64,000 bases of DNA from NCBI RefSeq assembly GCF_058153355.1, contig NZ_CM177019.1. One strand, 5' to 3'. Shown here piece by piece: positions 1-63,767 of the stretch. The notes below the pieces were generated by a model that was given only the letters and a program-made list of their open reading frames with translations, made no database searches and had not been told where the DNA came from. Both the position numbers and the translations under genes were made by a program. Each line of letters opens with the position of its first letter. The first letter of the stretch is position 1.

Positions 1-630
1 CAACAGCTTGCATCTTCAGCCAAACGTTATGGCTTCGATGCCGTCTCCGCCGTCACGCCGTTCTACTACCCTTTCAGCTTTGAAGAACACTGCGATCACT
101 ATCGGGCAATTATTGATTCGGCGGATGGGTTGCCGATGGTGGTGTACAACATTCCGGCGTTAAGCGGCGTTAAACTGACCCTGGATCAGATTAACACTCT
201 GGTTACGTTGCCTGGTGTCGGCGCGCTGAAACAGACCTCTGGCGATCTCTATCAGATGGAGCAGATCCGTCGTGAACATCCGGATCTGGTGCTCTATAAC
301 GGTTACGACGAAATCTTTGCTTCTGGTTTGTTGGCGGGCGCTGATGGTGGTATCGGTAGTACTTACAACATTATGGGCTGGCGTTATCAGGGTATCGTGA
401 AGGCGCTGAAAGAAGGCGATATCCAGACCGCGCAGAAGCTGCAAACCGAATGTAATAAAGTCATTGATTTACTGATCAAAACGGGCGTATTCCGCGGCCT
501 GAAAACGGTCCTGCACTATATGGATGTCGTTTCTGTGCCGCTGTGCCGCAAACCGTTTGGTCCGGTCGATGAAAAATATCTGCCAGAACTGAAGGCGCTA
601 GCCCAGCAGTTGATGCAAGAGCGCGGGTGA
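1..630 (+). CDS. nanA: N-acetylneuraminate lyase, 3' portion (5' end lies outside the window)
   Basis: Frame-1 translation from position 1 is continuous to stop at 628-630 and matches the NanA C-terminal region (…[22 protein letters not shown]…); followed by nanT as in the nan operon. Confidence 0.9.
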
Positions 631-738
631 GTTGTTTCCCCTCGCTCGCCCCTACCGGGTGAGGGGAAATAAACGCATCTGTACCCTACAATTTTTATAC
701 CAAAGCGTGTGGGCATCGCCCACCGCGGGAGACTCACA

Positions 739-2229
739 ATGAGTACTACAACCCAGAATATCCCGTGGTATCGCCATCTCAACCGCGCACAATGGCGCGC
801 ATTTTCCGCTGCCTGGTTGGGATATCTGCTTGACGGTTTTGATTTCGTTTTAATCGCCCTGGTACTCACCGAAGTACAAGGTGAATTCGGGCTGACGACG
901 GTACAGGCGGCAAGTCTGATCTCCGCAGCCTTTATCTCTCGCTGGTTCGGCGGCCTGATGCTTGGCGCTATGGGCGACCGCTACGGGCGTCGTCTGGCAA
1001 TGGTTACCAGTATCGTTCTCTTCTCGGCCGGGACGCTGGCCTGCGGCTTTGCGCCAGGCTACATCACCATGTTTATTGCTCGTCTGGTCATCGGCATGGG
1101 GATGGCGGGAGAATACGGCTCCAGCGCCACCTATGTCATTGAACGCTGGCCAAAACATCTGCGTAACAAAGCCAGTGGCTTTCTGATTTCCGGCTTCTCG
1201 GTGGGTGCCGTCGTTGCCGCTCAGGTCTACAGCCTGGTGGTTCCGGTCTGGGGCTGGCGAGCGCTGTTCTTTATCGGCATTTTGCCAATCATCTTTGCTC
1301 TCTGGCTGCGTAAAAACATTCCGGAAGCGGAAGACTGGAAAGAGAAACACGCAGGTAAAGCACCAGTACGCACGATGGTAGACATTCTTTACCGTGGTGA
1401 ACATCGCATTGCCAATATCGTAATGACGCTGGCGGCGGCTACTGCGCTGTGGTTCTGCTTCGCTGGTAACCTGCAAAATGCCGCAATCGTCGCTGTTCTC
1501 GGGCTGTTATGTGCCGCAATCTTTATCAGCTTTATGGTTCAGAGTACGGGCAAACGCTGGCCAACGGGCGTAATGCTGATGGTGGTTGTGTTATTTGCTT
1601 TCCTCTACTCATGGCCGATTCAGGCACTGCTGCCAACGTATCTGAAAACCGATCTTGCTTATGACCCGCATACTGTTGCCAATGTGCTGTTCTTTAGTGG
1701 CTTTGGTGCGGCGGTGGGGTGCTGCGTCGGTGGCTTCCTCGGTGACTGGCTGGGAACCCGCAAAGCGTACGTTTGCAGTCTGCTGGCCTCACAGCTGCTG
1801 ATTATTCCGGTATTTGCGATTGGTGGCGCAAACGTCTGGGTGCTCGGTCTGTTACTGTTCTTCCAGCAAATGCTTGGACAAGGGATCGCCGGGATCTTAC
1901 CGAAACTGATTGGCGGTTATTTCGATACCGACCAGCGTGCAGCGGGCCTGGGCTTTACCTACAACGTTGGCGCATTGGGCGGCGCACTGGCCCCAATCAT
2001 CGGCGCGTTGATCGCTCAACGCCTGGATCTGGGTACTGCGCTGGCATCGCTTTCGTTTAGCCTGACGTTCGTGGTGATCCTGCTGATTGGGCTGGATATG
2101 CCTTCTCGCGTTCAGCGTTGGTTGCGCCCGGAAGCGTTGCGTACTCATGACGCTATCGACGGCAAACCATTTAGCGGTGCCGTGCCGTTTGGCAGCGCTA
2201 AAAACGATTTAGTCAAAACCAAAAGTTAA
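739..2229 (+). CDS. nanT: Sialic acid (N-acetylneuraminate) MFS transporter
   Basis: ORF 709..2229; conserved N-terminus [13 protein letters not shown] begins at ATG 739; 496 aa polytopic membrane protein; synteny nanA-nanT-nanE. Confidence 0.9.
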
Positions 2230-2275
2230 TCCTGTTGCCCGGTCTTCTACCGGGCCTTTCGCTAAGGGAAGATGT

Positions 2276-2961
2276 ATGTCGTTACTTGCACAACTGGATC
2301 AAAAAATCGCTGCTAACGGTGGCCTGATTGTCTCCTGCCAGCCGGTTCCGGACAGCCCACTCGATAAACCTGAAATCGTCGCCGCCATGGCATTAGCGGC
2401 AGAGCAGGCGGGAGCGGTTGCCATTCGTATTGAAGGTGTGACAAATCTGCAAGCCACGCGTGCGGTGGTGAGTGTGCCGATTATCGGGATTGTGAAACGC
2501 GATCTAGAGGATTCTCCGGTACGCATCACGGCATATATTGAAGATGTCGATGCGCTGGCGCAGGCAGGCGCGGATATCATCGCGATTGACGGCACCGACC
2601 GACCGCGTCCGGTGCCTGTTGAAACGCTACTGGCACGTATCCACCATCACGGTTTACTGGCGATGACCGACTGCTCAACGCCGGAAGACGGCCTGGCATG
2701 CCAAAAGCTGGGAGCCGAAATTATTGGCACTACGCTTTCTGGCTATACCACACCTGAAACGCCAGAAGAGCCGGATCTGGCGCTGGTGAAAACGTTGAGC
2801 GACGCCGGATGTCGGGTGATTGCCGAAGGGCGTTACAACTCGCCTGCTCAGGCGGCGGATGCGATGCGCCACGGTGCATGGGCGGTAACGGTCGGTTCTG
2901 CTATCACGCGTCTTGAACACATTTGTCAGTGGTACAACACAGCGATGAAAAAGGCGGTGCT

Positions 2962-2965
<4 letters not shown>
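2276..2965 (+). CDS. nanE: N-acetylmannosamine-6-phosphate 2-epimerase
   Basis: 229-aa ORF; stop overlaps nanK start (ATGA); nan operon synteny. Confidence 0.9.
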
Positions 2966-4298
<1,333 letters not shown>

Positions 4299-4317
4299 AA
4301 CTTAGTTCGTTTTAAAG

Positions 4318-4342
4318 ATTCTGCAGACACTGTCTGCAGAAT
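4318..4342. repeat. Perfect 25-bp palindrome ATTCTGCAGAC-ACT-GTCTGCAGAAT between yhcH and the yhcG-like gene
   Basis: Read directly; same GCAGAC-N3-GTCTGC core as the three palindromes at 4829-4932. Confidence 0.9.
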
Positions 4343-4367
4343 TCGAAACCGCTGAAATTAACGGCGT

Positions 4368-5234
4368 CTATAGCCTTCCTCTAGCACCGCCTGTGTTCGA
4401 ACGAGTTCGGCGGTGGAAAAACAGCAGATCGACACGAAACCAGTTGTCATCAATGCGTAACCTTCGCTGCCGACCAACAAAGGCAAAATCATCCCCAAGT
4501 TCCAGCATTAAATCCATCAGGTGATTGATCAGCGCCTCCTCAAAATCGGATTCTGAGTATTCATCTTTCAATTCCAGAAATTCGAGCACAAAGGGATCGC
4601 GTATCGCCTGTTGCGGAAGAATATGCGTCTCGGCAGGAGCGTGTTGTTGCAGCATGGCTGATTTGTCATGTGACAGTAGTGTTCGCTCATAAAATTGGGT
4701 CGCAATTTGCCGCTCTAGCTGGCGGACAGACCAACCACAGCGGAGCGCCTCTTTTTCATAAAAGCTGCGGGCGTCAGCGTTTTTAACGGAAAGTAGACGG
4801 ACGTAGGTGGACCAAGGCAGGGGGAACGATTTGGCAGACAGCGTCTGCCAAATCTTTGCCGATGGGAATTCTGCAGACGGTGTCTGCGGAATTCCCAATG
4901 GTGTTAATTCGCCAGACACTGTCTGGCGAATTTCAACATGTTGAAAAAAGAGGTAAAAAAGCCTCATTTGGCGTAAGTTTTTTGCAGAGAACCCACGCTT
5001 ATACCTTAGACTTAAATCCTTTGATAGTCGCTTGATTAGCTGCGCACCATACGCAGCTCTGGCCTCGCCACCTTGTTCAAATTCGACAATTCGTCGGCCA
5101 ATTTCCCAGTACGTCGCGGTCATCAGCGCGTTAACGCTACGTACCGTTTCCGTTCGGGCGCTATCGACCAGATGAATAATGCCGTCGTGGATTTGCTGGT
5201 AGCCTGCTGTGGTTCCTTCTGAGAGCGATTCCAT
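4368..5234 (-). pseudogene. yhcG: YhcG-like DUF1016 (PD-(D/E)XK nuclease family) gene, apparently 3'-truncated and carrying an in-frame palindrome expansion
   Basis: 288-aa ORF with DUF1016-like N-terminal region (…TYWEIGRRIVE…, …NLRQMRLFY…, IWQTLSAK motif). It stops shortly after VDLLFFH, before the expected catalytic E-x-K segment. Only 69 bp separate its stop from the yhcH stop. Confidence 0.55.
4829..4945. repeat. Cluster of near-perfect palindromes inside the yhcG-like coding sequence (4829-4853, 4864-4896, 4906-4932, plus CAACATGTTG at 4934-4943)
   Basis: Read directly: TTTGGCAGAC-AGC-GTCTGCCAAA; GGGAATTCTGCAGAC-GGT-GTCTGCGGAATTCCC; AATTCGCCAGAC-ACT-GTCTGGCGAATT. Each unit encodes a variant of the IWQTLSAK motif in frame. 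Confidence 0.85.
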
Positions 5235-5417
5235 TATCTTTCCCTTTATATGGCGCAGTGTTGAATAATGGAATCAGCTATACGCCGGGCATCTGCCGGT
5301 AACAATCCAGATGTGCGTATTACATTGGTTTTCTTCAGATTATGCGAGGCGCTTTCCAGAACGAAAGGAGAATTTCAGCGCCGACTCTTTTCTGAGGAGG
5401 CGGCGCTGGGACAGAGC

Positions 5418-57953: not shown

Positions 57954-58034
57954 ATGAAAATTGCTGATCAATTTCATGATGAGTTATGTAGACTGGCCGC
58001 CATTAATTTTGAGGCACACGTACTACATGGCTGA
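57954..58034 (+). CDS. yrbN: Small ORF (26 aa) in the deaD leader, overlapping the deaD start codon
   Basis: ATG 57954 … TGA 58032-58034 encodes [26 protein letters not shown], consistent with the small protein YrbN as I recall it; below the ORF-track size cutoff. Confidence 0.5.
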
Positions 58035-59916
58035 ATTCGAAACCACTTTTGCAGATCTGGGCCTGAAGGCTCCTATCCTTGAAGCCCTTAACGATCTGGG
58101 TTACGAAAAACCATCTCCAATTCAGGCAGAGTGTATTCCACATCTGCTGAATGGCCGCGACGTTCTGGGTATGGCCCAGACGGGGAGCGGAAAAACTGCA
58201 GCATTCTCTTTACCTCTGCTGCAAAATCTTGATCCTGAGCTGAAAGCACCACAGATTCTGGTGCTGGCACCGACCCGCGAACTGGCGGTACAGGTTGCTG
58301 AGGCAATGACGGATTTCTCTAAACACATGCGCGGCGTAAACGTGGTTGCCCTGTACGGCGGCCAGCGTTATGACGTGCAATTACGCGCCCTGCGTCAGGG
58401 GCCGCAGATCGTTGTCGGTACTCCAGGCCGTCTGCTGGACCACCTGAAACGTGGCACTCTGGACCTCTCTAAACTGAGCGGTCTGGTTCTGGATGAAGCT
58501 GACGAAATGCTGCGCATGGGCTTCATCGAAGACGTTGAAACCATTATGGCGCAGATCCCGGAAGGTCATCAGACCGCTCTGTTCTCTGCAACTATGCCGG
58601 AAGCGATTCGTCGTATTACCCGCCGCTTTATGAAAGAGCCGCAGGAAGTGCGCATTCAGTCCAGCGTGACTACCCGTCCTGACATCAGCCAGAGCTACTG
58701 GACTGTGTGGGGGATGCGTAAAAACGAAGCACTGGTACGTTTCCTGGAAGCGGAAGATTTTGATGCGGCGATTATCTTCGTTCGTACCAAAAACGCGACT
58801 TTGGAAGTGGCAGAAGCTCTTGAGCGTAACGGCTACAACAGCGCTGCACTGAACGGTGACATGAACCAGGCGCTGCGTGAGCAGACGCTGGAACGCCTGA
58901 AAGATGGTCGTCTGGATATCCTGATTGCGACCGACGTTGCGGCCCGTGGCCTGGACGTTGAGCGTATCAGCCTGGTAGTTAACTACGATATCCCGATGGA
59001 TTCTGAGTCTTACGTTCACCGTATTGGTCGTACCGGCCGTGCGGGGCGTGCTGGTCGTGCGCTGCTGTTCGTTGAGAACCGCGAGCGTCGTCTGCTGCGC
59101 AACATTGAACGCACTATGAAGCTGACCATTCCGGAAGTAGAACTGCCGAACGCAGAGCTGCTGGGCAAACGCCGTCTGGAAAAATTCGCCGCTAAAGTAC
59201 AGCAGCAGCTGGAAAGCAGCGATCTGGATCAATACCGTGCACTGCTGAGCAAAATTCAGCCGACTGCAGAAGGTGAAGAGCTGGATCTCGAAACTCTGGC
59301 AGCCGCACTGCTGAAAATGGCACAGGGTGAACGTACTCTGATCGTGCCGCCAGATGCGCCGATGCGTCCGAAACGTGAATTCCGCGACCGTGACGACCGT
59401 GGTCCGCGCGATCGTAACGACCGTGGCCCGCGTGGCGACCGTGAAGATCGTCCGCGTCGTGAACGTCGTGATGTTGGCGATATGCAGCTGTACCGTATTG
59501 AAGTGGGCCGCGATGATGGTGTTGAAGTTCGTCATATCGTTGGCGCGATTGCTAACGAAGGCGACATCAGCAGCCGTTACATCGGTAATATCAAGCTGTT
59601 TGCTTCTCACTCCACCATCGAACTGCCGAAAGGTATGCCGGGTGAAGTGCTGCAACACTTTACGCGTACTCGCATTCTTAACAAGCCGATGAACATGCAG
59701 TTGCTGGGCGATGCACAGCCGCATACTGGTGGTGAGCGTCGTGGCGGTGGTCGTGGTTTCGGTGGCGAACGTCGTGAAGGCGGTCGTAACTTCAGCGGTG
59801 AACGCCGTGAAGGTGGTCGTGGTGATGGTCGTCGTTTTAGCGGCGAACGTCGTGAAGGCCGCGCACCGCGCCGTGATGACTCTACCGGTCGTCGTCGTTT
59901 CGGTGGTGATGCGTAA
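58027..59916 (+). CDS. deaD: Cold-shock DEAD-box RNA helicase
   Basis: ORF 57961..59916; conserved start [21 protein letters not shown] at ATG 58027; motifs [25 protein letters not shown]; Arg/Gly-rich C-terminal tail; 629 aa. Confidence 0.9.
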
Positions 59917-59941
59917 TCATCGCTGATTAGCGAACACAATC

Positions 59942-59959
59942 TGTAAAATAATATATACA
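59942..59959. promoter_or_regulatory. TyrR box (TGTAAA-N6-TATACA) upstream of mtr
   Basis: TGTAAAATAATATATACA read directly; mtr is a TyrR-regulated gene. Confidence 0.55.
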
Positions 59960-59990
59960 GCCCCGATTTTAACCATCGGGGCTTTTTTTC
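59958..59990 (+). terminator. deaD rho-independent terminator
   Basis: AGCCCCGAT-TTTAACC-ATCGGGGCT followed by TTTTTTT. Confidence 0.8.
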
Positions 59991-59998
59991 TGTCTTTT

Positions 59999-60018
59999 GT
60001 ACTCGTGTACTGGTACAG
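59999..60018. promoter_or_regulatory. TrpR operator-like palindrome in the mtr promoter
   Basis: GTACTCGTGTACTGGTACAG (trp operator-like GTACT…GTAC half-sites) about 50 bp upstream of the mtr ATG. Confidence 0.6.
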
Positions 60019-60069
60019 TGCAATACATAACAACGTAGTCGCACTATTTTTCACTGGAGAGAAGCCCAC

Positions 60070-61314
60070 ATGGCAACACTAACCACCACCCAAACGTCAC
60101 CGTCGCTGCTTGGCGGCGTGGTGATTATCGGCGGCACCATTATTGGCGCAGGGATGTTTTCTCTGCCAGTGGTCATGTCCGGTGCGTGGTTCTTCTGGTC
60201 AATGGCGGCGCTGATCTTTACCTGGTTTTGTATGCTGCATTCCGGCTTGATGATTCTGGAAGCTAACCTGAATTACCGAATCGGCTCGAGCTTTGACACC
60301 ATCACCAAAGACTTGCTGGGCAAAGGCTGGAACGTGGTCAACGGCATATCCATTGCCTTTGTGCTCTATATCCTGACCTATGCCTATATTTCTGCCAGTG
60401 GTTCGATTCTGCATCACACCTTTGCAGAGATGTCGCTGAATGTCCCGGCACGGGCGGCGGGATTTGGTTTTGCACTGTTGGTGGCGTTCGTGGTGTGGTT
60501 GAGCACTAAAGCCGTCAGCCGGATGACGGCGATTGTACTTGGGGCGAAAGTTATTACCTTCTTCCTCACTTTCGGCAGTTTGCTGGGGCATGTGCAGCCT
60601 GCGACATTGTTTAACGTCGCGGAAAGCAATGCGTCTTATGCACCGTATCTGTTGATGACCCTGCCGTTCTGTCTGGCCTCATTTGGTTATCACGGTAACG
60701 TGCCGAGCCTGATGAAGTATTACGGCAAAGATCCGAAAACTATCGTGAAATGTCTGGTCTACGGTACGCTGATGGCGCTGGCGCTGTATACCATCTGGTT
60801 GCTGGCGACGATGGGCAACATCCCTCGTCCGGAGTTTATCGGCATCGCCGAGAAGGGCGGTAATATTGATGTGCTGGTACAGGCGTTAAGCGGCGTGCTG
60901 AACAGTCGTAGTCTGGATCTGCTGCTGGTCGTGTTCTCAAACTTTGCGGTAGCGAGTTCGTTCCTCGGTGTTACGCTGGGTTTGTTTGACTATCTGGCAG
61001 ATCTGTTTGGTTTCGATGACTCAGCTGTGGGACGCTTGAAAACGGCACTGTTGACCTTCGCACCGCCTGTTGTGGGTGGTTTGCTGTTCCCGAACGGATT
61101 CCTGTACGCCATTGGTTATGCTGGCTTAGCGGCTACCATCTGGGCGGCAATCGTTCCGGCGCTGCTGGCCCGCGCATCGCGTAAACGCTTTGGCAGCCCG
61201 AAATTCCGTGTCTGGGGCGGCAAGCCGATGATTGCACTGATTCTGGTGTTTGGCGTTGGCAACGCACTGGTGCATATTTTATCGAGCTTTAATTTGCTGC
61301 CGGTGTATCAGTAA
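60070..61314 (+). CDS. mtr: Tryptophan-specific permease
   Basis: 414-aa polytopic [36 protein letters not shown]…. Confidence 0.9.
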
Positions 61315-61322
61315 TTGAACGA

Positions 61323-61347
61323 GCCGGATGAGCAGTTTTCATCCGGC
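61323..61347. terminator. Hairpin between mtr and the convergent 176-aa ORF
   Basis: GCCGGATGA-GCAGTTT-TCATCCGGC; no strong T-run, possibly bidirectional. Confidence 0.5.
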
Positions 61348-61373
61348 AATATTCCATAGTGCGCGCGAGGTAA

Positions 61374-61904
61374 TCAAATATATCCTTGTTTATTATAAAG
61401 TTCTTCGGCAAGTGCTTCCCCATGTTCATCGAAAAATGCATTGGCGATCTTTAAATTATTCTCCTCAGGATTTGCCGTTATCCTGCTACCATTGGAATCA
61501 AATTCGAGCGCGATGGCGATCTCCGACCCCCACCAGTAATCATAAATTAGCGCAAAATTATTTTCCCCTGGCGTAATAAATTTCTCGATGCCTCGCACAC
61601 AGGCCATGAGTGGTATGAAGATTTCATAGCTCTCTGAGAGAAATATATGATCCATCGTGACTATCTGTGTTTCTTTATTAAAGTTGATATGTTCGGCATA
61701 AATATTCTTTTCACTTTCACCAGAATTACAAGCTGCAAGATTGTTAAGCATTTTTGCAGGATCGCCGTACAACCGCTGCTTCTCGATAAACCATGGCAAC
61801 CAGTCGTCATGGTCTTTGATATTTGTTGCTGGTGAATGGAAAAACTTCTCGAGGTTACTCTCGGTAATATGTGTATGAAGAAAAAAGGAAGCCGGTTCAC
61901 TCAT
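61374..61904 (-). CDS. Hypothetical protein (176 aa), no recognisable domain; first gene of the AT-rich islet between mtr and yhbW
   Basis: Uninterrupted ORF in AT-rich DNA with a plausible start context; no signal peptide seen; Trp/Tyr-rich (IYDYWWGSEIAIALEFD). Confidence 0.55.
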   Translation of the reverse strand: MSEPASFFLHTHITESNLEKFFHSPATNIKDHDDWLPWFIEKQRLYGDPAKMLNNLAACNSGESEKNIYAEHINFNKETQIVTMDHIFLSESYEIFIPLMACVRGIEKFITPGENNFALIYDYWWGSEIAIALEFDSNGSRITANPEENNLKIANAFFDEHGEALAEELYNKQGYI

Positions 61905-62062
61905 AATGATTTTCTCTGGTAATAAGTCGATTTGTTCATTTCTCTGTTTGGCGATGATAAAACGATGACTATTTTATAAAAGTACAGAACTGGACCTTTC
62001 ATCTATTTCCTATCATAGGAAAATATATACTTGAACTGGATCAGAATAAGCGGAATACGAAA

Positions 62063-62782
62063 ATGGGGTGTAAAGGATTACTCGCTATTGTATTGTTGAG
62101 CCTGTTTATCGCTTTTATTTTAAAAATTTTCTGGCCCACCCCGCACGATGAACATCTTTTCCTGCCCGTTGAAAAACCTTTCGTATCGTCTTTAAAAATC
62201 ATTCGCCCCGGCGACCAGTTATTTATCCGCATTCTGAAAGCGGAAGATAAGCTGGAACTGTGGGCAAGCATCAACAACAAGCCTTACGAACTCTATAAAA
62301 CCTGGACTATATGCGCGTGGTCTGGTGGCTTAGGGCCAAAACACAAACAGGGGGATGGTAAAAGCCCGGAAGGTTTTTATGCCACCAACAAAGGGTTGCT
62401 TAACCCAAACAGCCGCTATCATCTGGCATTTAATATTGGTTACCCGAATGCTTACGATCGGGCAAACGGCTACACCGGTGATTTCATTATGGTTCACGGA
62501 AACTGCGTTTCGGCGGGCTGCTATGCCATGACCGATGCTGGTATTGAAGAGATTTATCAACTGGTGGCGCAGGCGCTGAATAGCGGACAGAAGAGCGTGC
62601 CGGTGCATATCTTCCCGTTTGCGATGAACGACGAAAATATGCGCCAGGCGCAGGCATGGCCGGAATATAATTTCTGGCGTATGTTGAAGCCCGGCTATGA
62701 TTACTTTGAAAAAAATCGCCGATTGCCAACCATCAACGTTGAAAACCGGCGTTATAAAATCAGCCCAACAACTCTTCCTTAA
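62063..62782 (+). CDS. YafK/DpaA-like L,D-transpeptidase-fold (YkuD) protein with N-terminal membrane anchor or signal
   Basis: 239-aa ORF; hydrophobic N-terminus ([18 protein letters not shown]); YkuD catalytic signature [14 protein letters not shown] (His … Ser-x-Gly-Cys) and YafK-like motifs [32 protein letters not shown]. Confidence 0.65.
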
Positions 62783-63767
62783 CATCCATCGCCAGTTCAA
62801 ACGAATGCAGGCGCGCCTGGTGGTCGAAAATCTGCCCGTTAACCATAATCTCATCCGCGTCGGTTTCGCGCAGGATCGACTGCAAACCATGACGCACTTT
62901 CGCTTTATCACCCACCAGCGACATACTCAGCGCCTGCTGCACGCCATACTGCTCAGACGGTGACCAGAACTGATCCATATTTTGAATCGGTGGCGGCAGT
63001 TGCCCGGTTTCACCGCGGCGCAGCTTCACAAAGGCTTGCTGCATTGAGGTAAACAGAAATTCAGCGTCGCGGTTGCTGTCGGCGGCGATAATATTGATGC
63101 ACACCATCGCGTACGGTTTCTCCAGCCGCGCTGACGGTTTGAAGTTACTGCGATAAAGATGCAGCGCCTGGAATAGCATATCCGGTGCGAAGTGTGAGGC
63201 AAACGCGAACGGCAGACCAAGCTGCGCCGCCAGTTGTGCACTGTAAAGACTGGAGCCTAATAACCACACGGGGATTTTCTCGCCATAGCCCGGTACAGGG
63301 CGCACATGCGGATTGGGATCACGGGCGTCAAACCAGTCCACCAGCTCCGCGACATCGCGGGGGAAATTATCAATATCGCCGCTCATATGGCGACGTAGTG
63401 CCATCATTGTCCGTTGGTCACTACCTGGCGCACGACCCAGCCCCAAATCGATTCGCCCCGGATAGAGCGTATTGAGCGTACCGAACTGTTCGGCAATCAC
63501 CAACGGTGAGTGGTTTGGTAACATCACGCCGCCAGACCCCAGATGCAGCGTGGTGGTATTTGCCGCCAGATAGCCAATCAATACTGATGTTGCAGCACTG
63601 GCAATGCCAGTCATATTGTGGTGTTCCGCCAGCCAGTAGCGATGATAGCCGCGCTTTTCAGCCAGACGGGCGAGGTCGAGAGAGTGGGAGAACGCTTCTC
63701 GCGCTGAAGAACCTTCGGGGATGGGGGCCAGATCGAGTAGCGAAAACGCAATGGTTTTATCAGTCAT
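62760..63767 (-). CDS. yhbW: Luciferase-like (LLM class) flavin-dependent monooxygenase
   Basis: 335-aa [29 protein letters not shown]…; its 3' end overlaps the convergent YafK-like ORF by 23 bp. Confidence 0.85.

Follow-up and report, generated by a model that had tools for sequence, protein, structure and literature searches.

A small minority of Escherichia coli chromosomes carry a short, AT-rich segment with two genes between the conserved genes mtr and yhbW. One such copy lies in the DNA analysed here, a stretch of 64,000 nucleotides of contig NZ_CM177019.1 from the RefSeq assembly GCF_058153355.1 (we call this whole stretch the window, and the segment the islet). The two genes are divergently transcribed. 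One encodes a YkuD-domain protein, an extra paralog of DpaA/YafK, and the other a protein of an unnamed family, which we call p176 after its length in amino acids. We read the islet as a non-mobile, ancestral accessory segment in which the gene for an additional DpaA-type amidase and the p176 gene are neighbours without a toxin-immunity link, and we give this reading a probability of about 0.6. An earlier note, written from the letters of the window alone, had described the two divergent open reading frames (ORFs), the 158-base-pair (bp) spacer between them, the motif HGNCVSAGC and the AT-richness of the interval, and its coordinates for all of these were right.

The islet is accessory in E. 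coli, as the note had supposed. In K-12 MG1655, which lacks it, yhbW and mtr converge on a spacer of 117 bp with no gene in between, in agreement with the note. In the window, homology to islet-free E. coli breaks at 61316/61317 and restarts at 62763/62764 (blastn), so that a segment of 1447 bp stands in place of the 119-bp spacer of islet-free E. coli. The start first given for the interval, 61348, falls ~30 bp inside the true left junction, a trivial discrepancy. GC content is 0.36-0.44 over 61200-62250, compared with 0.50-0.58 in the flanks. Among 5426 complete E. coli genomes, 183 (3.4%) have the segment and 5424 have matches to its flanks. Every one of the 183 carriers has the segment in full length, in single copy and on the chromosome, and the chromosomal site is identical in all carriers. 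At the right-hand edge, the final 23 bp of the YkuD ORF (62760-62782) run into the 3' end of yhbW, which is convergent with it, and the C-terminus of yhbW (…KEELLG) is written in different synonymous codons in islet-bearing and islet-free strains. This codon switch indicates that the exchanged tract takes in the end of yhbW.

The same order of genes (mtr, p176, YkuD, yhbW), with the inner two divergent, recurs in E. coli, Salmonella, an Enterobacteriaceae metagenome-assembled genome (MAG), Superficieibacter and a Klebsiella oxytoca-type metagenome locus (L032). Within E. coli, the islet alleles show 99.7%, 95.2%, 94.6% and 91.7% nucleotide identity to the window. In addition, the p176 and YkuD proteins of five K. 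oxytoca assemblies have consecutive GenBank accessions. Close-family scans for p176 returned two genome loci and six metagenome loci only. Since the adjacent cases all sit at one syntenic site, ancestry and tight linkage suffice to explain the association of the two genes. A side observation concerns another K. oxytoca-type contig (L031, 6556-12552), in which the pair adjoins yhbW and no match to mtr occurs in the 6 kb beyond p176. Set against L032, this means that the far flank differs in some K. oxytoca-type genomes.

The history of the segment can be read from how its divergence compares with that of its flanks. Between the E. coli window and Salmonella, the islet is 92.7-94.3% identical in nucleotides, non-coding spacer included, whereas the flanks are 85.1% (mtr) and 83.7% (yhbW) identical. 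Synonymous divergence (dS) gives the same picture, with 0.21-0.26 for the islet and 0.84-1.05 for the flanks. It follows that the common ancestor of the islet copies in E. coli and Salmonella is far younger than that of the two species. This argues for exchange, and homologous recombination in the conserved flanks is its simplest route. In the comparison with the MAG and Superficieibacter, identity is 69-79% for the islet and 81-84% for the flanks; an islet more diverged than its flanks is consistent with a resident segment that is old and evolves faster. The divergence among islet alleles of E. coli reaches 8%. When region 58027-63767 of the window is compared with its closest relative (L001), identity varies from gene to gene (deaD 99.8%, islet 99.7%, mtr 96.4%, yhbW 98.3%), and these mosaic flanks suggest separate recombination tracts around the islet.

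A mobile island, an insertion sequence (IS) element or a prophage remnant was considered as the source of the segment and rejected: there are only two ORFs in it, with no integrase, IS element, tRNA or target duplication. Moreover, the segment has no terminal direct or inverted repeats beyond chance and no match in Rfam, and no copies of it were found in plasmid or phage collections.

The two genes also occur, and decay, independently of each other. Beyond the Enterobacteriaceae, p176 homologs stand alone. In Chania, the p176 homolog lies between Smr and DoxX genes with no YkuD neighbour. Leminorella likewise has a p176 homolog without a YkuD neighbour, and its closest YkuD relative is ~770 locus tags away. 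Seven contexts of more distant members of the p176 family (two on short contigs, five longer) contain no YkuD gene, no toxin gene and no common neighbour. The genes found nearby in the five longer contexts are of many kinds: patatin-Omp85/Skp, cupin/AsnC, a lipase with an integrase fragment, SymE/Sel1, and unannotated genes. An NCBIfam search with the neighbours of the distant p176-family genes gave no match.

Decay has struck either gene while the other was left whole. On a Salmonella-type contig, codon 149 of p176 is changed from GAA to TAA (a nonsense mutation) beside an intact 239-residue YkuD gene. In K. oxytoca, N-terminally truncated forms of p176 (159 and 133 residues) are present on dozens of contigs, and a 236-residue YkuD protein is common. 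The reverse is seen in K. oxytoca 10-5245, in which a YkuD protein truncated to 194 residues accompanies a full-length p176. On more than 800 Salmonella contigs, all that is left of the YkuD paralog is its C-terminal ~143 residues, annotated as 'partial', and at least one Salmonella genome has a scrambled p176 remnant of 96 residues (S. enterica protein clusters P0316-P0329 and P0021). The locus is a pseudogene in much of Salmonella. Two frameshifts in L032 fall in homopolymer runs and may be assembly errors, so the evidence for truncation is taken from RefSeq and GenBank proteins instead.

The 239-residue protein is a member of the DpaA/YafK family, and the earlier description is borne out: its fold is that of YkuD, it resembles YafK/DpaA, and its N-terminus holds a hydrophobic segment. 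It matches the NCBIfam model NF040599 (LdtF_DpaA_YafK) with 252.1 bits (E=3.9e-75) over profile positions 40-224 of 242. This is an equivalog model with a curated cut-off of 365 bits, and a score of 252 bits therefore marks the islet protein as a paralog within the family, not as a DpaA equivalog. Its sole Pfam domain is YkuD (PF03734, E=3.9e-6), and the crystal structure of DpaA (PDB 8IKR) is matched over residues 48-235 (E=3.8e-65). BLASTP gives 51% identity to K-12 DpaA across 200 residues and aligns K93, S117, H145 and C153 with K83, S107, H135 and C143 of DpaA. These key Cys, His, Lys and Ser residues are kept in every ortholog examined. In DpaA itself, Cys143 and Lys83 are essential, as reported in PMC10653827 and PMC13400389. 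The ratio of non-synonymous to synonymous substitution rates (dN/dS) of the YkuD gene is 0.10-0.46; that is, the gene is under purifying selection.

Core dpaA is present in 5423 of the 5426 complete E. coli genomes, so the YkuD gene of the islet is an additional copy. Its product groups with proteins of K. oxytoca, Leminorella and Budvicia (55-67% identity), and in the same comparison it is 43-49% identical to DpaA, which is the distance also seen to homologs of other phyla. This grouping apart from DpaA points to an old paralogous lineage and not to a recent duplicate. The protein also matches phrog_17304 in PHROGs (E=2e-66; unknown function), which shows that catalogues of phage or prophage proteins include YafK-like ones.

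DpaA of E. coli K-12 (PDB 8IKR) and the islet protein have in common the YkuD-derived fold, the subfamily and the loop HG-x-CVS-x-GCYAM, and the N-terminal export signal of DpaA has a putative counterpart in the islet protein. They differ in that DpaA is core and soluble, whereas the islet protein is accessory and possibly membrane-anchored through its long hydrophobic N-terminal segment, and in that a C-terminal tail of ~20 residues in DpaA is absent from the islet protein. The N-terminus of the latter consists of a short start with K/R residues followed by a hydrophobic stretch of ~19 residues (residues ~5-24; the segment was judged by eye), with no lipobox, and this design is kept in orthologs. 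No obvious signal-peptidase site is seen in the E. coli allele. With its long hydrophobic segment and no evident signal-peptidase site, the protein may be anchored in the inner membrane, or else it may be secreted. A more distant homolog, Lpg1514 of Legionella pneumophila, has a YafK scaffold with conserved Cys, Lys and Ser, and the authors of that work argue that weak serine-dependent beta-lactam turnover is common to YafK homologs (PMC13400389). The corresponding Ser is present in the islet protein (S117), for which no beta-lactam phenotype is known. The alignment in PMC13400389 also includes a second YafK homolog of S. Typhimurium (Q8ZLT7), which was unassayed there and might correspond to this locus.

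The product of the other gene is a different matter. p176 begins with MSEPASFF and lacks a hydrophobic leader, and no in-frame start further upstream would allow a longer ORF. The first reading of the sequence had recognised no domain in it, and this stands: p176 has no match in Pfam, NCBIfam, PADLOC or the sequences of the PDB and nothing meaningful in PHROGs, and a tblastn search of phage genomes gave no match. It has few close homologs: they are in Salmonella (91% identity), Chania (72%), the Enterobacteriaceae MAG (69%) and Superficieibacter (67%), followed at 57-58% by those of K. oxytoca, Leminorella and Providencia. When 1.84 billion representatives were searched with a profile, the family grew to 132 clusters at E<=1e-3, spread across Proteobacteria and Bacteroidota. 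Nearly all of these clusters have proteins of ~180 residues whose alignment begins at residue 1, and the identity of p176 to distant members is 17-29% (alignment A2, hits in the AlphaFold database (AFDB)). Fifty members of the family were searched against Pfam and matched no family. With a dN/dS of 0.13-0.22, the p176 gene is a real gene under constraint.

p176 is thus a clear member of an unnamed family of ~180-residue proteins ('MSEPSSLY...'), with which it shares its predicted fold. Members in Salmonella, Chania, Klebsiella oxytoca and others are labelled 'cytoplasmic protein' or 'hypothetical protein', and neither a Pfam or NCBIfam model nor a solved structure exists for the family. One metagenomic member (P0033, 399 residues) is a tandem duplication of the whole domain, and no other fusion partner occurs among the members seen. 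In Saezia there are two family paralogs with neighbouring UniProt accessions. The AlphaFold model of p176 is confident (predicted local distance difference test (pLDDT) 88.8; predicted template modelling score (pTM) 0.86) and is predicted to have a ferredoxin-like (ACT/RAM-like) core. Full-length uncharacterised relatives from Bacteroidota, Pseudomonas, Burkholderia and others are found in AFDB50 at template modelling (TM) scores of ~0.8. Across the family, positions M1, S2, E3, F21, W35, W38, E91 and N92 are invariant or nearly so, and the conserved residues are mainly aromatic, not catalytic. The conserved Met-Ser-Glu, the two tryptophans and the Glu-Asn pair look less like the mark of an enzyme than of a protein that binds or regulates, and our best guess is that p176 is a non-enzymatic protein of this kind. 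Its predicted fold points to no specific function.

Two relatives of p176 in AFDB bear an automatic 'SMI1/KNR4' label. SUKH (SMI1-KNR4) and other Pfam immunity families were tried as relatives of p176 and rejected, with no match in sequence or fold and a negative hhalign comparison with a SUKH protein. One published list of computational candidates for type III secretion effectors includes STM3278, a 'putative cytoplasmic protein' that might belong to this locus. A model of p176 fused by a linker to the YkuD protein, with eight paired orthologs, was uninformative (pLDDT 48.7, pTM 0.41, with the YkuD half below 50).

The spacer shared by the two genes holds one further feature. In five lineages (versions of E. 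coli, Salmonella, the MAG and Superficieibacter) it measures 157-166 bp, and in the K. oxytoca type 219-237 bp. The E. coli and Salmonella spacers are 94% identical. A promoter scan of the 158 bp in the window returned no consensus sigma-70 site. A near-palindrome, GT[AC]CAG[AG]A[CA]TGGAC, is found in six of nine orthologous spacers, ~72-89 bp upstream of the p176 start codon. The form in the window (GTACAGAACTGGAC) occurs once in its 64 kb, with 0.1 chance matches expected, and a perfect-palindrome form of the motif (GTCCAGAAATGGAC) is found in two other genera. The motif has been lost from one E. coli allele and from the K. oxytoca type. We regard it as a candidate operator or promoter element, and it is the only sequence-level hint of co-regulation.

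The question is then whether anything beyond position joins the two genes. Several observations weigh against the view that they are simply neighbours in an ancestral segment. Adjacent pairs keep the divergent layout even between copies so far apart that their synonymous sites are saturated; the near-palindrome of the shared spacer is conserved in four lineages; and in E. coli both genes are jointly present or absent (183 of 183 carriers). Leminorella, too, retains both families, albeit unlinked. Such facts are compatible with a functional link such as a co-regulated envelope module, in which p176 would act with an anchored amidase (as a regulator at the shared promoter, or in the handling of a product or signal) and selection would maintain the pair. 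We find this unlikely. Adjacency at one syntenic site is explained by linkage alone, and a single deletion of 1.4 kb takes out both genes. The p176 gene stands alone in Chania, Leminorella and the distant genomes, and either gene decays beside an intact partner. No DNA-binding domain was detected in p176, and the cytoplasmic tail of the enzyme, at ~4 residues, would leave nothing for a cytoplasmic partner to bind. It is, in turn, very unlikely that the islet is a two-compartment module predating the split of Klebsiella, Escherichia and Salmonella, in which the control region bears an operator, the amidase frees a non-Lpp (or additional) tethered protein, and p176 senses or regulates.

Protective functions have also to be weighed. 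The earlier note had raised the possibility of a toxin/immunity-type pair, and Salmonella does have effectors of the type VI secretion system (T6SS) that are of L,D-transpeptidase fold and whose immunity genes lie next to them (10.1101/2020.02.18.954545). In particular, the Tae5/Tlde1-Tai5 system of Salmonella pathogenicity island 6 (SPI-6) resembles the islet in its distantly related fold and in setting a peptidoglycan-acting enzyme beside a small protein, and in the islet an enzyme and a small unknown protein adjoin in AT-rich accessory DNA. However, Tae5/Tlde1 effectors belong to DUF2778 (PF10908), have no signal peptide, are delivered by the T6SS and are bicistronic with their immunity gene, while Tai5-type immunity proteins have a Sec signal or transmembrane segments and are placed where the toxin acts (10.1101/2020.02.18.954545). 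The islet has no such feature. Its enzyme is of the YafK branch and has its own N-terminal hydrophobic signal, p176 has no signal, and the two genes are not co-transcribed but divergent. The neighbours are housekeeping genes (mtr, yhbW, deaD, ubiUV), and no T6SS or other secretion-system genes lie near the islet. Disrupted p176 alleles coexist with an intact YkuD gene, the p176 family is widespread without YkuD neighbours, and PADLOC has no match for either protein. With compartments, orientation, family, context, solo homologs and disrupted alleles all against it, an antibacterial or self-toxic enzyme with a cognate immunity protein is scarcely credible here. The note's other suggestion, cell-wall remodelling, stays plausible for the YkuD gene only and does not extend to p176.

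p176 might still protect against something unrelated to the YkuD enzyme, either as an orphan immunity protein that counters a polymorphic toxin of competitors acting in the cytoplasm or as a stand-alone protective factor. Members of its family are single small genes of patchy occurrence and variable context (Bacteroidota, Pseudomonas, Burkholderia, Enterobacterales), and some metagenomic copies lie within tight runs of small unannotated genes. The paralog pair of Saezia, the tandem-domain member, the two automatic 'SMI1/KNR4' labels and a set of conserved residues that is mostly aromatic rather than catalytic point the same way; the seven distant contexts are the ones described above, free of toxin genes. 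We judge this role decidedly unlikely.

The course of events would then be as follows if the islet is, as we favour, an ancestral segment with two neighbouring genes. The segment would already have occupied its fixed site between mtr and yhbW in an ancestor of several Enterobacteriaceae genera. Later, it would have been deleted in most E. coli and have decayed in much of Salmonella, and species would have re-exchanged it, most likely by way of homologous recombination in the conserved genes at its sides. Judging from its conserved catalytic residues, the YkuD paralog probably hydrolyses, in the periplasm, an amide bond between a protein and meso-diaminopimelate (the Lpp-peptidoglycan type of bond). 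This activity would supplement that of the core, soluble DpaA, or specialise it locally. p176 would be a ~20-kDa cytoplasmic protein whose link to the YkuD gene is one of neighbourhood only.

The features of the locus are collected in the table below.

Table. Features of the mtr-yhbW interval, in window coordinates.
Feature	Position	Strand	Remark
mtr	60070-61314	+	left flank
accessory segment	61317..62763		1447 bp, 43% GC; junctions by blastn against the empty site L002
GC-rich hairpin	61323..61347		between the stop codons of mtr and the p176 gene, which converge here
p176 gene, 176 aa	61374..61904	-	cytoplasmic protein; unnamed family of ~180-aa proteins
divergent spacer, 158 bp, AT-rich	61905..62062		presumed site of both promoters
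near-palindrome GTACAGAACTGGAC	61982..61995		candidate operator or promoter element in the spacer
YkuD gene, 239 aa, contains HGNCVSAGC	62063..62782	+	extra DpaA/YafK paralog
yhbW	62760-63767	-	right flank

Two further features concern the site itself. The hairpin at 61323-61347 has a fold energy of -17 kcal/mol on the plus strand and -18 kcal/mol on the minus strand (z-scores -1.8 and -2.8, respectively). A scan for consensus terminators did not call it, and it has no clear T-tract; it is a possible bidirectional terminator. The 119-bp spacer of islet-free E. coli bears palindromes resembling repetitive extragenic palindromic (REP) elements. In two islet-free genomes, NZ_CP053731.1 and NZ_CP195958.1, an IS110-family element, IS621, is inserted in the mtr-yhbW spacer (position ~61316/62764). 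The IS621 insertions and the REP-like palindromes together indicate that the mtr-yhbW site is a recurrent target for change. Further neighbours of the islet are deaD and ubiUV.

Our literature search found no study of this locus and no paper that mentions both yafK and yhbW. The novelty of the finding is modest, in that a known enzyme family gains a member beside a protein of unknown function, and it would take proof of a new substrate, or of a functional link joining p176 and the YkuD protein, to change current understanding. Still, p176 offers a handle on a family for which Pfam and NCBIfam have no model and no structure has been solved, although its fold is predicted with confidence. The locus also makes a clear case of an ancestral segment under loss and yet exchanged across species via conserved flanking genes. 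That DpaA detaches Braun's lipoprotein has recently been recognised as a means of tuning the link that holds the outer membrane to peptidoglycan. In this context, a second, possibly anchored DpaA paralog in a minority of E. coli and Salmonella, and in K. oxytoca, could explain differences between strains in envelope stiffness, vesiculation and beta-lactam tolerance.

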